From positions 434,001 to 481,058 of the forward strand of contig BAAIJX010000015.1 in the NCBI GenBank assembly GCA_054600435.1: 47,058 nucleotides of DNA. Direction: 5' to 3'. This DNA is from Neophaeotheca triangularis. Taxonomy: Eukaryota. The notes below the pieces were generated by a model. That model was not told the DNA's origin, made no database searches, and saw nothing but the letters and a program-made list of their open reading frames with translations. Shown here in pieces: positions 1,625 to 32,996 of this stretch; the stretch's first letter is position 1, and each line of letters starts with the position of its first letter. A program made the translations under genes and the position numbers.

Positions 1625-1721
1625 GGTCAGGTGTCCGAGTGGTTATGGAGCTGCGTTTAGGCCTATCTAAACACTTTTCCGCAGTGGCGTTGCCTCGCGC
1701 GTTCGAATCGCGCCCTGATCA
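1625..1721 (+). tRNA. tRNA-Leu(UAG) with a 17-nt canonical intron (1662-1678)
   Basis: Acceptor GGTCAGG/CCTGATC plus discriminator A; anticodon stem CTGCG/CGCAG with TAG at 1658-1660; long variable arm TGGCGTTGCCTC; T-arm GCGCG-TTCGAAT-CGCGC; intron CTAAAC pairs with GTTTAG; T10 terminator at 1731-1740. Confidence 0.95.
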
Positions 1722-24759: not shown

Positions 24760-27471
24760 CTAGCTTTCGGGTTGGCGTGGCGGAGCAGGTGAGTGGCCGG
24801 CGGAGGCTGTAGACCGGGCGTCCAGCGCCGAGGAGGCATCCATGGAGGCCCGTTTTGAGCTCGGCCCGACGTCGAGGAGTTTGGCGCTGCCGGCGGACAT
24901 TTGCCGGGCGTGCCCCCTACCCATGTTTACGCTGCGGGCTTTTTCAACGCGCGATTCCCGCGGGTATTGTTCTTCTTCTTCATCGTCAGAGGCTTCGGCG
25001 CCGTGCAGGGAGGCGCTTTGGCCGGCATAGTCTGTGAGGAGGCCTTCGCGGGATCGCTCGCGTTGATTGCGGTGAATGAGGGTTGGTTTTCTGCGAACAC
25101 TGTCGTGGACTTTGAGTGGTTCCCCAGAAGTTGCGGCAGGAGTTTCGGTCAAGACACTTGCGTCGTCTTGGCGATCTCTAACGGCTTCTTTGCCTTTGGT
25201 GCTGGGCTTTGTGCGCTGAGTATATTCGGCGTCTTTGTCGACGCCGAGCTCTTCGTAGCTACCGACGAAGTCTGGATTGCGCTTGCTTAGCGAGCCGTTG
25301 CTTCTGCCAATCGCCGAGTAAATCGATGCGCGCTGACCGGGGCCCCCTGCTAGCCAAGATCCTTCAGAGTCTACGGATGCGAGAGAGGGTGACACCATTG
25401 CTTGCGCTTGTGTGCCAGGACTAGTCGCTCCGCCCGCGCTACTGGGGTCTGGAAAAGAATGTCGAATGTTACTTTCACCTCTGCCCGGGATGTTCATTGG
25501 TTTGGGCGGAGGTGGCATCTGCTGTCTTTGTGCGGCTGCGATGGATGCTGAGGCATTGGACGGCAGGTCTGGGGAGTGCACCCTCGAGTCTGGCGGCGAT
25601 ATGGGCAGTTCTGGCAAGTCTTCCCTAAACTTGCTCTGTGTGCGCACCGGGGCGCCCGACTTCCGGCGCTGCGCTACTTGTGGAGGGTCAGCGCTCAGAT
25701 GCGCAGGGATTGGTTGTTGTCGAACCATTGACTCTCTGGAGGTATTGGAGAAGGAGAATTCTGATGGCGAGTATTCGCCTTGGGGTTTCTTGAGGTTTGT
25801 TCCACCACGTCGGAAGAAGGTAGCCCAGGCGCCTGCTCGACGCCCATCCTTTGTTTCCGAAATCCTCCGCTCGGACGGATATGACGGTGGATGCATGGTA
25901 TCTGGGGTGCTGATGCGCCGTAGATCGCTCAGTCGCGAGACGCTCGACATGGCTCGCGGGTTGGAGGCTGGCGACAGTGGTGGTGTGGCGGTCTGCGAAG
26001 CTTGCGACGTACGAACGACAGGCGGGCGTTCTTCTGTCGGCGTCCTTGCAGCAGGTGTGAAAGAGCCCGGAACAACGGGCAACGGTCTATCGTCATCTTC
26101 CATCGGTGTGCCGGCTGGCGAGCCCTCGAACGGGTTTTCTGGTATGTCAGTGTTCGGTCGGTAGTTAAGATAGGTGCCTGTGTTTTCAGTTCCCCTCTCT
26201 TGGGTAGTAGGAAGGATATTTTGAGGCGCGTCTGTGGAGATAGCAGCACCAATACCAAGGCCCACGTTCTCTGGCGGACTTGAAGCGCTTTCGTCCCCTC
26301 CGTCACGTAGCGCAGGATGGACAGCAGTTGGCGGGGTCATCATACGCCTCGTCCTAGCCTCTTCCACAGCGCGTGCCCTTGCATCGTCCGCGCGCTTGAC
26401 TTCTTCTGCTTCACGAGCTTCTCTTTTCCTTCTATCACTGTTCGCACGGTGTCTCCCTTCCTTCTGCAGCTTCTTATCCAACTTTTCTTGCTGCTCGAGC
26501 TTTCTCTTCTCTCTACGTTTCTGATCTCGTTCCAACAACATGCGCAGATCACTCGCATCGAAATCGTCAGCCTCCTGGCCAATGGTCGCTCGTTTCCTAT
26601 CCGAGCTCCTCGACGCCGGCGCCTTCTCCTTGGCTCTAGACGTATTTGGCGAAAGCGGCGAAGAAGTACCTTGTACGCTGCCCGGCCTCGCATACTGCGC
26701 ATGACCGGAAAGGCGGACGGCGGGTCTTGCTGAAAACATGCCGATACCGCCAATTTCCCAACCCCTCTGTTCTGGGATGCCAGACATGCTCGAATGGATC
26801 GAGCCTTCGAGTGGTAGTGAGACGTTCGAGTCTCTGTTGATGCCACGGAACTTCTTGCTGTCCCTCCTCATCAGGCCTTCGCCTGGGCCTCCGTGTCGTT
26901 TTGGTATAGGCATTGGAGCGGTCATGCTACGTATCTCCTCTTCCCTCAAATGCTCGTCCTTTCGCTTCTTGCTTGAGCGTCTTCGCTGTGGCGTGCCAGA
27001 GTCGTTGGCGCTGCGCTTGGATCTCAGGGTCTGCGGTCTCGAGGGCCTTCCAGTAGCCGATTCAGGCTGCAGACTTGTGTGGGAGGCCGAGTGGCCGCGA
27101 AAGCTGTATGGTATCTTGGCCGGCTCCATGTCGACAGGTCGCAAATGAGGGCTCGAGTCGAGCCTCCTGCTCACAGGCAGCGCGGTGATGTTCTCGATGC
27201 TTCCTCTAGACGCAGGAGCGTTCTCCTTGTTGTGTTCAGGCACAGGTCGCACCTGTTTCTCGTTGGCAAATCCAGCTTCTTTTGCTTTGATGTCCTCTCT
27301 CGTCGGCTCACGCTTCCTTCTTTTGCTGGTCTCGCGCTGTACTTGTGACTTTGCTGGCGTTGGTGTCGAAGCTCCGTCGGCGCGGGCTTTTTCACTGGCA
27401 GGAGGATGCGCCGGCGCGTCCTCCTTTTTGGGGCTGTTGCGCCGCCTCTTCCTAAAAGGCCAAATGGGCAT
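24760..27471 (-). CDS. Hypothetical low-complexity protein (903 aa), R/S/P-rich with a central coiled coil
   Basis: 2.7-kb open frame from ATG (MPIWPFRKRR); coiled-coil-like DASDLRMLLERDQKRREKRKLEQQEKL; function not recognised. Confidence 0.85.
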   Translation of the reverse strand: MPIWPFRKRRRNSPKKEDAPAHPPASEKARADGASTPTPAKSQVQRETSKRRKREPTREDIKAKEAGFANEKQVRPVPEHNKENAPASRGSIENITALPVSRRLDSSPHLRPVDMEPAKIPYSFRGHSASHTSLQPESATGRPSRPQTLRSKRSANDSGTPQRRRSSKKRKDEHLREEEIRSMTAPMPIPKRHGGPGEGLMRRDSKKFRGINRDSNVSLPLEGSIHSSMSGIPEQRGWEIGGIGMFSARPAVRLSGHAQYARPGSVQGTSSPLSPNTSRAKEKAPASRSSDRKRATIGQEADDFDASDLRMLLERDQKRREKRKLEQQEKLDKKLQKEGRHRANSDRRKREAREAEEVKRADDARARAVEEARTRRMMTPPTAVHPALRDGGDESASSPPENVGLGIGAAISTDAPQNILPTTQERGTENTGTYLNYRPNTDIPENPFEGSPAGTPMEDDDRPLPVVPGSFTPAARTPTEERPPVVRTSQASQTATPPLSPASNPRAMSSVSRLSDLRRISTPDTMHPPSYPSERRISETKDGRRAGAWATFFRRGGTNLKKPQGEYSPSEFSFSNTSRESMVRQQPIPAHLSADPPQVAQRRKSGAPVRTQSKFREDLPELPISPPDSRVHSPDLPSNASASIAAAQRQQMPPPPKPMNIPGRGESNIRHSFPDPSSAGGATSPGTQAQAMVSPSLASVDSEGSWLAGGPGQRASIYSAIGRSNGSLSKRNPDFVGSYEELGVDKDAEYTQRTKPSTKGKEAVRDRQDDASVLTETPAATSGEPLKVHDSVRRKPTLIHRNQRERSREGLLTDYAGQSASLHGAEASDDEEEEQYPRESRVEKARSVNMGRGHARQMSAGSAKLLDVGPSSKRASMDASSALDARSTASAGHSPAPPRQPES

Positions 27472-28869: not shown

Positions 28870-30420
28870 ACCACAACCTAGAGTCTCTAGAGTCTACGAA
28901 TAACAATATTAATAACAAATCGAGAATGGTAGGTTGTCGCGGCTAGCGCAATCTTGATCGAATCGCTTCCTGCTTCCTTTCTATCTCACCCCTTTCTCTA
29001 GCCAAAACTCGGGAATCCTCCGTACTCGACGGCAGGGAGTGAACCCAAACCCTAGCCCGTCTTCTCCCTTGAATCGTTACCTTATCACTAATCATACGAC
29101 TATCCCTATTGGAAAAGTAGCTCTCGGTATTCTCTATAAAAATACAGTGTTACCACCTATACTCGGTATGTGCTCTCCTAAAAAAACTCGAACAACTTTG
29201 ATTTCGAGAACCCCTTGGACTTTTGAAAAAGCTCCTAAGGCTTCTAGAAGTTTACCTTCGACACCTCACTTGATAGATTCGAACATCTGAGATCAAAAGC
29301 ATCGCGTCTCGGCGCTACGCTCGCAATTACTGTTCTCCGTTAATATAGAAAACATTCGACGGTACACACGTGCCCGCCTTTTGCGCCCAGCGAATTTAAG
29401 TATTTCAATAATGTTTAGACAGCCGCAGGCCTCCCTCAAATTCTAGGCTGACATCTTGCAGACCTCATAGGCGAGGTGATAAGACTACGTACACCGTATT
29501 AAATTGTCAACTGTGCTCTGAACACCGACGCCACCTTGTAGCAAGCCGCTCAGTGTAGTGAGTAGGTATTGCTCATAGTAGCTCCGCTTCGCTCGGAAAC
29601 ACCCACTATATCGCCAGAGAATGTTGGCCAAAACCTTCCAGCGAGCCGAGTTCAGCTGCTACTAGGAAACACTTCGAGCTCATCCGCTTTCTAGACAGGT
29701 GCGCCACCACTGTAGACGTTGCTGGCCAAAGCAAGACATTCCACCGCTTCCATGCCGATCGTGAAGAGCACTGACGTACTGATAGCTACCGTCGCTGTAC
29801 TCGGCCCTCTCTAGACACAACTGATCATGGAGACTATCGCTATAGAAGAGCAGAGGGAGCTGAGGTTGCCCTCCTAAGTCATAAGCGGAGAACGTTCAAT
29901 CAGGTAGCTGTCGCCGGAGAGAAATGCTACCGGAGAGAAATGCTACCAGAGAGAAATGCCACCGGAATTGGCTCTCGGTCTTCGTGTCTGTCCGCCTTGG
30001 CCCGTCATCTACCTTCAAACAGTATACAGGTAAGCTATAGTACTAGGACCATATCGAACGACGACAAAGATTTCCTAGTCGAAAACTGCCAGCGCTCTAG
30101 CGAGCTCACCGACGGTCAAAGCCGTAGTAGATCTTCTTGCGGTTCATGAATATCGCTTCTCAGATCCCGGGCCGTATTGGTACTAATCGATTCGGCTTTC
30201 ATAGCAGGTGCCGTCGTGCAGTAAGCTGCTAGAAGTGGTTGTCTGGTGAGGTTCTCGTGCCTTTCGTTGGCCCGGGAACGTATACATCGTCGGAGAGTGC
30301 TCTCGAAAGCTCGCTTCGGAATGACTGAACCGGAGTATTGCCTGGGTAGTCATTTGGAAGCATACTACCTAGCTACTCTATAGTTAATAGAGGAATCGAA
30401 TGTATGCATTAACGCGATGT
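28870..30420. other. Degenerate, possibly RIP-mutated relic (TE or gene); identity unknown
   Basis: No long ORF; by eye enriched in TpA/CTAG relative to flanking genes; frames punctuated by TAG stops. RIP indices not computed. Confidence 0.35.
29914..29965 (+). repeat. 16-bp tandem repeat x3
   Basis: CCGGAGAGAAATGCTA / CCGGAGAGAAATGCTA / CCAGAGAGAAATGCCA / CCGG. Confidence 0.9.
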
Positions 30421-30613
30421 ACGCTTCCGTTTCCATACAGGAGTTATAGTCCTCGATTTCCAAGGTTCTTTGTATGATCCGGCTCGTCACGGCGGCAAGG
30501 CGCTGGGCTTGGGCGGTGCTCAATTATCAGCGATATATTTTTTGTCACCAAAGATGAGTCATCAACGAAATCAATCAATGGTTTCAAGTCCGCAGAGGCA
30601 AGGTTTCCTGGTG

Positions 30614-30671
30614 GTTCGTCTCCCCTGACTCTAAGCTCCACTGAAGAATCACTCGCTAACAATCCTAATAG
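30614..30671 (+). other. 58-nt spliceosomal-type (GT-AG) intron in the tRNA-Val D-stem, between tRNA nt 12 and 13
   Basis: 5' GTTCGT; branch site GCTAAC at 30655-30660; 3' TAG; exact removal restores the D-arm and A box. Confidence 0.85.
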
Positions 30672-30697
30672 TAGTTGGTTATCACGTCTGCCTAACA

Positions 30698-30721
30698 TCC
30701 GCTTCTAAGAAGTAATGTGGG
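30698..30721 (+). other. 24-nt canonical tRNA intron (position 37/38) of tRNA-Val
   Basis: Begins one nt 3' of the anticodon; removal restores a 7-nt loop CTAACAC; G at intron -3 can pair with C32. Confidence 0.9.
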
Positions 30722-31183
30722 CGCAGAAGGTCGGCGGTTCGAACCCGCCGGAAATCACGATGATATTTCTTTTTGCCAATTTTGGAGTGCGCTCTGCGAA
30801 TACCCTTTTTGCCTTCCAGCCTTTTTTCTTTTTGCGTTTGATAGAAAAATGGGTCAACCCGAGTAGACGCATACAACGTTTAGCAGCACCAGAGTTAGCC
30901 GCTAGAACTACCTCCTATCAGTAGTACTCTTTGTGATCAAGTCGTAAAGTTGAAACGAATTTGGCGGGGTGTATCGTTGATTCATACTTTGAGAACATCT
31001 TCCATTTCCACAGACCCTCATAACACTTTCATATTCGCCAAACTGAAGCCCACTTCGATTGCCAGACAGCTCATTCGAGCAAACAAATCACCACCGAAGT
31101 ACCTGCGTTCTAGAAAAGACCCGCTCATTCGCCAGCCGTTCGCGTGGAACAATCGCAGTATTCGATACAGCACCACCTCAATC

Positions 31184-32595
31184 ATGGCCTCTACAGCACT
31201 CGATGGAAAGGCAAAAGAGCTCGTCACAAAGTCCTACCCGCAGGCTCAGGAAGAGAGCGGTGATGCTGTGAAGCTCTCGCACGCTGTCTTCCCTAAGGTG
31301 GAGGTGAGCCAAACCATAGCGACAATATCAAAGCAAATGCTCGGGGCTAACAATGATCCCAGTACTCGACCGCAGAAAAGACGGAAATCGAGCAATGGAT
31401 CATCACTTCCTCCCACATCGCTTCGCCCTCCGAGGATGGTGCAAAGACCGCCGAACGCCTCTCCTCCCTCAACACCCACCTGTCCACCCGCACTATGCTG
31501 TTAGGCAACAAGCCTTCAGTCGCAGACATTGCCATGTTCTCGCGCCTCGCGCCCGTCGTCAAAGACTGGACCCCTGAGCAACGAACCGGCGAGCAAGGTT
31601 GCCATCACATCGTCCGGCACCTCGACTTCGTCCAGAACTCCCCAATGTTCGGCCTCAAGCTCTCCTCCGACGAGAAGGTCGCCATTGACCCCTCTCAAGT
31701 CGTCTCCCCAATCAAACCTATTGATGCCAAAGCCGAGAAGGAGCGCAAGAAGAAAGAGAAGGCTCTGGCCGCAGCGGGCGCAGACACAGCAGCAGCATCA
31801 GGAGGCGCCGTCAGCTCCGCAGCCAGCAAGGACACGCAAGAAGCCGAGCAGAACAAGCCCGCAACCGAAAAGGCCAAAGAACTGGGCGAAAAAGTCGCCG
31901 GCGCCGTCGGCGCAGAAACCCCAGGCGTGAGCAAGAAGAAGGAGAAGCAACCCAAGCAGCCCAAACCCCAAAAGAACGCCCCAGCCGCGGACAAACCCCT
32001 TTCCCCCGCCCTCATCGACCTGCGCGTCGGCCACATCCTCAAAGCCGTCCAGCACCCCAACGCCGACAGCTTATACGTCAGCACCATCGCCTGCGGCGAC
32101 GCCCCCGGCACCGACAACACTTCCGAGTACGAGGGCAAGATTGTGCGAACCGTCTGCTCCGGCTTGAACGGGCTGATCCCGCTGGAGCAAATGCAGAACC
32201 GCAAAATCGTCGCCGTCTGCAACCTCAAACCCGTGACCATGCGCGGCATCAAATCCTGCGCCATGGTCCTGGCCGCCTCGCCTCGCCCCGTCCCCGGCGA
32301 AGAAGACAAGCACGCCGGACCAGTCGAGTTGGTGAACCCGCCTGCCGATGCCGAAGCGGGCGAGAGAGTCTTTTTTGAGGGCTGGGAGGGCGAGCCGGAG
32401 GGTGTTCTTAACCCGAAGAAGAAGGTCTGGGAGGATTGCCAGCCGGGTTTCACCACCACGGGGGCTAAGGAGGTGGCTTTTGAGCCGCTGGCTGTGGAGA
32501 AGTTGAAGGAGGGGGAGAAGAAGGAGGTGGCCAAGTTGAGGACGAAGCAGGGTGTTTGTACTGTTAGTACGCTTGAGGGCGCTACTGTGAGGTAG
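31184..32595 (+). CDS. ARC1: tRNA-aminoacylation cofactor (GST-like N-domain + EMAPII-like OB fold), about 450 aa; exons 31184-31303, 31363-32595
   Basis: Intron 31304-31362 (GTGAGC..GCTAAC..CAG); EIEQW..LNTHL..RTMLLG..PSVAD; IDLRVGHILKA..HPNADSLYVS, RTVCSGL, VCNLKPVTMRGIKS.AMVL, LNPKKKVWE. Confidence 0.93.
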
Positions 32596-32996
32596 AATGC
32601 TTGATTTAGTGTGAGGGATGTGAGCTCGATGTGGCAGTGGATGATTTCTAGACGAATGTATGCGAAGACAATAGAACTTCAGGCTTGTGGTTCCTACCAT
32701 GTATCTTTCCGTCCGACCGTCGCGATATGTTCCTGTCGAGCCAACGTCTGCCTTCGGCAATCCCTGCTGGCCAAACCAAGTCGAGATAAGCAAATACAGA
32801 AGCAGGCGTTTCCCGCAAGCAGAAGTCGCCAAACCAATACTAAGCCACTATTGTAAAGCCTCTATATTCTCAAGCAAATGCTAACACGATACCACTTTCA
32901 ATCATGAGCAAAAATACCTCCCACAAGCTCGAGCAGACACCCCTACCACACTAGCAACTATCACCGCCACAGCCATTAACAACTCTGTCCTATTTC

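Follow-up and report, generated by a model that had tools for sequence, protein, structure and literature searches.

Whether a nuclear tRNA gene can depend on the spliceosome as well as on the tRNA-splicing endonuclease (TSEN) is the question raised by a locus in a 47,058-nucleotide stretch of the genome of the fungus Neophaeotheca triangularis (this whole stretch is hereafter called the window). In textbooks and in recent accounts, spliceosomal introns and tRNA introns are separate systems with separate substrates, and a 2025 paper assigns spliceosomal introns to mRNAs and further transcripts of Pol II and regards the three intron types as unrelated (PMC12530127). At positions 30602–30757 (+) of the window, three exons and two inserts are found, and removal of both inserts yields a 74-nt tRNA-Val(AAC) cloverleaf as called by ARAGORN, in which 20 of the 21 stem pairs are standard.

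All parts of this gene lie on the plus strand. Exon 1 (30602–30613; 12 nt) comprises the 5′ strand of the acceptor stem, nucleotides 8–9, and D-stem nucleotides 10–12. Exon 2 (30672–30697; 26 nt) comprises D-stem nucleotide 13, the D-loop, the 3′ strand of the D-stem, the 5′ strand of the anticodon stem and, at its 3′ end (up to 30697), the anticodon loop as far as A37, including the anticodon AAC. Exon 3 (30722–30757; 36 nt) supplies the 3′ strand of the anticodon stem, the variable loop, the T-arm, the 3′ strand of the acceptor stem, and the discriminator A. Intron 1 (30614–30671; 58 nt), which is of the spliceosomal (GT..AG) type, interrupts the D-stem between positions 12 and 13, within the A-box region, and intron 2 (30698–30721; 24 nt) is a canonical tRNA intron at position 37/38. 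The initial annotation had described a GT-AG insert at 30614–30671 and a 37/38 insert at 30698–30721 around a 26-nt middle exon, and both the coordinates and the description proved correct upon in silico splicing and analysis with ARAGORN. It had further assigned the two inserts to two intron classes within one tRNA, and this assignment holds: the insert in the D-stem resembles a spliceosomal intron and lacks a bulge-helix-bulge (BHB) motif, whereas the one at 37/38 is of the canonical kind, with a predicted fold that includes an anticodon–intron helix. The presence of both the D-stem GT..AG insert and the 37/38 insert in the tRNA-Val(AAC) gene is confirmed.

The unspliced gene escapes standard detection. 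ARAGORN calls no tRNA at 30602–30757 in the unspliced DNA, with its intron mode either on or off, and Rfam gives no match at the gathering score over the window and none at E ≤ 10 over 30400–30950. When the first insert alone is removed, ARAGORN in intron mode calls a tRNA with a 24-nt intron that is set three bases earlier, and names it Pro(TGG); this call was rejected, as it would place the intron at 34/35 rather than at the standard 37/38. The window also contains an ordinary tRNA-Leu(TAG) gene at 1625–1721 (+), whose canonical intron is 17 nt long and which is followed, after 9 nt, by a T10 run; it is likewise missed by default ARAGORN and by Rfam at the gathering score.

Intron 1 carries the signals of an mRNA intron, as judged by the fungal branch-site and splice-site consensus. 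The 5′ splice site GTTCGT (30614–30619) has the form GTNNGT, the presumed branch A of the branch-site motif GCTAAC (30655–30660) is 30659, which is 12 nt upstream of the terminal base of the intron, and TAG (30669–30671), as the 3′ splice site, contains the first AG past the branch motif. Two choices of intron boundary fit the same mature sequence, and only one of these gives GT..AG. The chance occurrence of this set of signals was estimated with 400,000 random 58-mers drawn from the window and set into the same tRNA context. A GT..AG reading is permitted by 3,672 of these, and the GTNNGT form is added in 266; 12 have in addition a CTRAY motif 8–30 nt from the 3′ end, and 7 of the 400,000 also have no AG between the branch motif and the 3′ end. 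Intron 1 has all four features, and its splice signals are non-random.

The same signals are found in an mRNA intron of the window. A 59-nt GT..AG intron at 31304–31362 (coordinates given after a +2 shift) is verified at the RNA level, in that a contig of a metatranscriptome joins the flanking sequences and skips it. This intron has the same GCTAACAAT branch motif and the same 12-nt branch distance as intron 1, and in these two respects intron 1 therefore resembles the mRNA introns of its own genome; the two introns also differ in length by a single nucleotide (58 versus 59 nt), with the verified one located 630 nt downstream. A GTTCGA start is seen in one candidate intron that bridges ORFs (25674–25725, −). 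The ORF-bridging search for local mRNA introns is noisy (1,264 raw rows, 49 after filtering), and the few candidates used serve as illustrations and not as a consensus. Taken together, these signals suggest that intron 1 is a U2-type intron, which would be excised by the spliceosome.

A second copy of intron 1 is absent from the 47-kb window and from 21 kb of related loci (described below), in which the best other match is 10 nt long, so that a multicopy introner is unsupported, although this is little DNA. Each of 282 candidates of the form GTNNGT..CTRAY..AG in the window and these loci was removed in turn and the product was submitted to ARAGORN. Only Val loci emerged (that of the window and L003, in four rows) from this single-removal scan, which is blind to genes with two GT..AG inserts.

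Relatives of the split gene occur in metagenome contigs. These contigs were scanned with a pattern consisting of exon 1, a gap of 40–70 nt, and the start of exon 2; neither GT nor AG was demanded, and since an insert was required, intron-less Val copies are invisible to the scan. Seven loci of another Val(AAC) gene (L001–L007) were found, and a relaxed pattern gave no match over prokaryote genome contigs, as expected. By blastn, the seven loci represent three locus types (L001/L002/L004/L007, L003/L006, and L005). Within the first type, the blastn identity to L001 is 99.4% for L002 and 95.7% for L007, and an ungapped comparison of L004 with L001 shows 4 differences over about 2,930 positions; L003 and L006 are 82.7% identical across 729 nt (blastn).

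In all seven metagenome loci the first insert can be read as GTYAGT..CTAAC/CTAAT..TAG and is located in the D-loop at position 15/16, 3 nt away from the 12/13 site of the window gene. Homology of the introns at these two sites is unproven. A further insert that begins with GTATGT is present in the anticodon stem at position 28/29 in L001 (2582–2636), L002, L004, L005 (gene offsets 85–138, −), and the cut-off L007, and is missing from L003. In the four loci in which this second insert is complete, it is 54–55 nt long and has the form GTATGT..ACTAAC or TTAAC..CAG. Contig ends truncate two of the loci (L006 and L007), which leaves five complete metagenome genes, and none of these five has a 37/38 intron; all of their inserts are of the GT..AG type.

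The spliced products of the five complete metagenome genes are identical at 74 of 74 positions and are called Val(AAC) in every case (six of six by ARAGORN when the window gene is included). Their introns and surroundings have diverged considerably. Intron identity between locus types is 0.62–0.73, as against 0.53–0.62 for pairs of unrelated introns by the same measure; the upstream flanks of the three locus types have no blastn match in common, and alignment in the downstream direction extends only a few bases past the gene. The tRNAs of the window and the metagenome differ at 14 of 74 positions, 12 of which form six base pairs and two of which are in the T-loop. All six of these pairs are compensatory, with both sides changed and pairing kept, and no one-sided change is seen; C7–G66, C31–G39, and a GGCGG/CCGCC T-stem are specific to the window gene; the pattern holds only if the inserts are cut exactly at their GT..AG boundaries. 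Because every change in a stem is compensatory, these genes are best read as encoding functional tRNAs under structural selection rather than as pseudogenes. At the level of sequence, the split-tRNA arrangement is conserved in another lineage, with compensatory stem changes.

Several additional features of the metagenome loci were observed. In L003 (about 945–1049, +) and L006 (about 575–660, +), an inverted, 5′-truncated second Val copy is located about 500 nt from the intact gene and comprises about 27 nt from the 3′ end of intron 1, exons 2 and 3, the T-run, and 3′ flanking sequence; no exon 1 is found for these truncated copies within three mismatches. Intact and truncated copies share intron variants within each of the two contigs, which suggests gene conversion. 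In L001 (2406–2453, −), and also in L002, L004, and L007, an inverted 3′ half of the Val gene is located 48 nt upstream of the intact gene and extends from the anticodon loop onward, followed by a T4 run; together with the 3′ exon of the gene itself, this copy forms an inverted repeat of 44–49 nt. In the Val genes of L001–L005 the T-loop is ATCGAGC, with A54, G59, and C60, where a TTCGA.. form is usual, and the B box of these genes is therefore atypical.

The evidence above is best explained, and in our judgement probably, by a working tRNA-Val(AAC) gene with a spliceosomal-type intron. A different reading is that the tRNA-Val copy in the window is dead or dying and has taken up a random insertion, such that the insert is never removed and no functional tRNA is made. 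ARAGORN and Rfam see no tRNA there, the A box is disrupted, no RNA contig covers the locus in the one metatranscriptome available, and the partial inverted Val copies of L003, L006, and the L001-type loci, which are truncated at the 5′ end, indicate that Val debris does occur in such genomes. Against this stand a complete set of splice signals that only about 2–3 in 100,000 random 58-mers match, the integrity of all exons with 20 of 21 stem pairs, the retained terminator, and the second lineage, which keeps GT..AG inserts in the same arm and identical exons despite diverged introns and flanks, and from which the window gene differs in its stems by six changes that are all compensatory. We regard a dead gene as quite improbable. 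It is highly improbable, in turn, that intron 1 is removed from a living gene without the spliceosome, either by the tRNA-splicing endonuclease acting on a BHB-like fold or by some other nuclease and ligase. The appeal of such a route is that D-arm and T-arm introns removed through a BHB are the only known extra tRNA introns of eukaryotes, according to one report (PMC4090602). At the strict BHB positions of intron 1, however, only 2 of 4 pairs form in the central helix, 1 of 4 in the exon-side helix, and 0 of 4 in the intron-side helix, and a 4-bp central helix is found in none of six GT..AG inserts from the window and metagenome genes (2 of 4 pairs at best, in the strict hBHBh′ register). The predicted fold of intron 1 by itself is weak (−3.7 kcal/mol), and GT, CTAAC (with the variants given above), and AG are kept in every insert, although BHB introns need none of them. 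With 58 nt, intron 1 is also far below the size of self-splicing introns.

The choice of polymerase bears on a further alternative, in which the spliceosome still excises intron 1 but from another precursor, made by another polymerase: the tRNA would be embedded in a longer Pol II transcript (a lncRNA or UTR) and freed by RNase P and RNase Z. In a tRNA gene the A box occupies positions 8–19 and the B box positions 52–62. In the window gene the 58-nt insert interrupts the A-box region after position 12, so that no intact A box is present in the DNA, and TATA-like elements, which are found near −30 in L003, L005, and L006, are not obvious upstream of the window gene; for both reasons, it is not assured that Pol III initiates in the standard way upstream of exon 1. 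On a transcript that lacks a cap, moreover, a 5′ exon of 12 nt plus leader is very short for a spliceosome to assemble, and the long capped leader of a Pol II transcript would ease the splicing of such an exon. It also speaks for Pol II that the spliceosome normally works on Pol II transcripts, as described in the 2025 paper (PMC12530127), and that the Val gene of L005 is located about 240 nt downstream of a ubiquitin-hydrolase ORF on the same strand. The 3′ side of the gene, in contrast, has the appearance of a Pol III unit. A terminator-like T-run, TTTCTTTTT (30766–30774, +; T5 at 30770–30774), begins 9 nt after the tRNA 3′ end, and a run of at least five T residues occurs within 25 nt past the gene in four of four independent Val loci, as well as at the ordinary tRNA-Leu gene of the window, whereas T5 is present in only 1.7% of random 25-mers from the window (0.7–3.3% across the same sequences). 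Such a run is expected of Pol III and has no role for Pol II. No T-run within seven GT..AG inserts is longer than 3, and the B-box-like GGTTCGAACC (30736–30745, +) in the T-arm of exon 3 is intact. The RNA contigs near the locus start at 31032, 275 nt past the tRNA, and none joins the tRNA to its neighbor in what is a shallow run. The Pol II precursor is in our view rather unlikely. Pol III is the most likely polymerase for the window tRNA-Val gene, given that the T-run terminator is kept directly after the gene and that the B box is intact; since the A box is split in the DNA, the choice of start site would then have to rely on something else. The leaders of the Val (30588–30601) and Leu (1611–1624) genes both have GTCC 12–14 nt before the mature 5′ end, and CAATCA is present 17–30 nt upstream in both genes; as only two sequences are compared, a shared start-site context is possible at most.

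A pathway can be proposed for the working gene. The interval 30602–30757 would be a nuclear tRNA-Val(AAC) gene of an ascomycete, transcribed by Pol III into an RNA with two unrelated introns. Intron 1 would be recognized via GTTCGT, CTAAC, and TAG and removed by the nuclear spliceosome, as is the case for the intron of U6, a Pol III transcript, in Schizosaccharomyces pombe according to one account (PMC5855946). Only when intron 1 is out, leaving a G12–T13 junction, would the D-arm form, and intron 2 would then be removed by the tRNA-splicing endonuclease, which needs the body formed by the acceptor stem together with the D-arm, and by ligase. In this pathway we infer the excision itself, the enzyme responsible, the polymerase used, and the order of splicing.

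Intron 2 has the properties of a canonical tRNA intron. In the minimum free energy (MFE) fold of the transcript without intron 1, the anticodon pairs with intron 2 and the 3′ splice site is located at a bulge beside the anticodon stem; the outer helix (the anticodon stem beside the 3′ site) has four of four pairs. The acceptor, D, and T arms are all present in the MFE fold without intron 1, and the D and T arms are missing from the fold that includes it, although MFE folds are weak evidence for splicing order. The initial annotation had rested its proposed order on recognition of the folded tRNA body by the tRNA endonuclease, and this premise agrees with a published account in which TSEN contacts the D-arm and reads the tRNA body (PMC10485636). 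It is plausible that the D-stem intron is removed first, by the spliceosome, before the TSEN step, because TSEN reads a tRNA body that the 58-nt insert would disrupt. The two steps would also be separated in space. In budding yeast as well as in fission yeast, TSEN resides on the outer face of mitochondria, and the same is expected in other ascomycetes (PMC10485636). If the window species conforms, compartments would enforce the order, with TSEN at the mitochondrial surface acting after a spliceosome confined to the nucleus. A dependence of the Val-tRNA supply on the spliceosome, which the initial annotation also proposed, is possible and would hinge on how many copies of the gene the genome contains.

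The combination of the two intron classes is not conserved, since no 37/38 intron occurs in the metagenome relatives. That both classes are present in the window gene probably reflects introns that were gained separately and by accident, and neither a coupling by design nor a means of regulation kept in evolution.

The neighborhood of the gene was also characterized. In one marine metatranscriptome (assembled as contigs), four contig pieces fall within 30000–32700: they match 31032–31487 and, as two short, less similar pieces, the region near 32400–32535, and no contig matches 30000–31031. RNA-seq contigs rarely contain tRNAs, and this blank carries no information on expression. About 430 nt downstream of the tRNA-Val gene is a gene for an Arc1p-like tRNA-binding protein (31184–32595, +), with matches to tRNA_bind and Arc1p_N_like clusters that are mostly from Ascomycota, and this protein assigns the window to the ascomycetes. 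The 59-nt GT..AG intron at 31304–31362, which is joined in an RNA contig, belongs to this gene. That a gene for a tRNA-binding protein adjoins an unusual tRNA gene may be a coincidence.

The closest precedents for intron 1 are found in other non-coding RNA genes of fungi, with the introns of U6 genes as the nearest working analogue. Bhattacharya et al., as cited in PMC5855946, reportedly described spliceosomal introns in ascomycete rRNA genes in 2000. Those introns resemble intron 1 in being of the spliceosomal type within a gene that is not transcribed by Pol II, and differ in that the host is a Pol I rRNA gene and not a tRNA gene. Spliceosomal introns are also described in fungal genes for U6 snRNA (in S. 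pombe, and up to four per gene in other fungi), for U1, U2, and U5 snRNAs, and for rRNA (PMC5855946). Like intron 1, the introns of U6 and the other snRNA genes are short, of the GT..AG type with canonical sites, and located inside a small structured non-coding RNA gene; in both fungal U6 and tRNA-Val, moreover, intron sequence is not conserved between lineages, insofar as the U6 introns are described in that account (PMC5855946). The tRNA-Val gene differs from U6 in that its product is not part of the spliceosome, its 5′ exon is only 12 nt, its intron splits the A box, and its splicing is predicted from sequence. Since the tRNA is not part of the spliceosome, an origin by reverse splicing at the active site, as proposed for U6 introns, is not obviously applicable.

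Extra introns have been described in tRNA genes of other organisms. In nucleomorphs and in Cyanidioschyzon merolae, these depend on a BHB (PMC4090602). As in the gene described here, the tRNA introns of archaea, C. merolae, and nucleomorphs occupy non-canonical sites that include the D arm and sometimes occur as several per gene and in combination with a canonical intron, as summarized in the same report (PMC4090602). They nevertheless adopt a BHB fold and are cut by the tRNA endonuclease, whereas intron 1 has GT, CTAAC, and AG and lacks a BHB. The canonical 37/38 introns cut by TSEN are matched by intron 2 (24 nt, a predicted anticodon–intron helix, and a bulged 3′ site), and not by intron 1, whose position at 12/13 the ruler mechanism described for TSEN does not reach (PMC10485636). 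In a full-text search of the literature outside subscription journals and supplements, no paper was found that reports introns of the spliceosomal or mRNA type in nuclear tRNA genes. Introns of the mRNA type, known in small non-coding RNA genes, appear here in a tRNA gene, a situation undescribed in the literature found.

A bolder proposal, which we hold to be tentative and somewhat doubtful, is that the spliceosome serves as a routine maturation enzyme for Pol III tRNA transcripts in this fungus and that it acquired this role independently in one or more further lineages of fungi. Every tRNA-Val(AAC) copy would then carry an mRNA-type intron in its D-arm, the A box would be whole only in the RNA, decoding of valine would depend on the spliceosome, and a nuclear step would obligatorily precede cytoplasmic cleavage by TSEN. 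Because split genes of this kind are invisible to standard tRNA finders, the tRNA gene sets of fungi would be systematically under-counted.

If the split gene works as proposed, tRNAs would join the short list of RNAs not made by Pol II that contain mRNA-type introns, which so far includes U6 and rRNA. It would then have to be explained how Pol III can serve a gene whose A box is divided, and how splicing copes with a first exon of only 12 nt. Programs for finding tRNA genes would miss real genes, as illustrated by the blank that both ARAGORN and Rfam return at 30602–30757. The two-intron gene also provides a natural test of the order of splicing, as it combines nuclear splicing with the cytoplasmic, mitochondrion-bound splicing of ascomycete yeasts. 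For the organism itself, the supply of a decoder tRNA would be tied to its splicing capacity.
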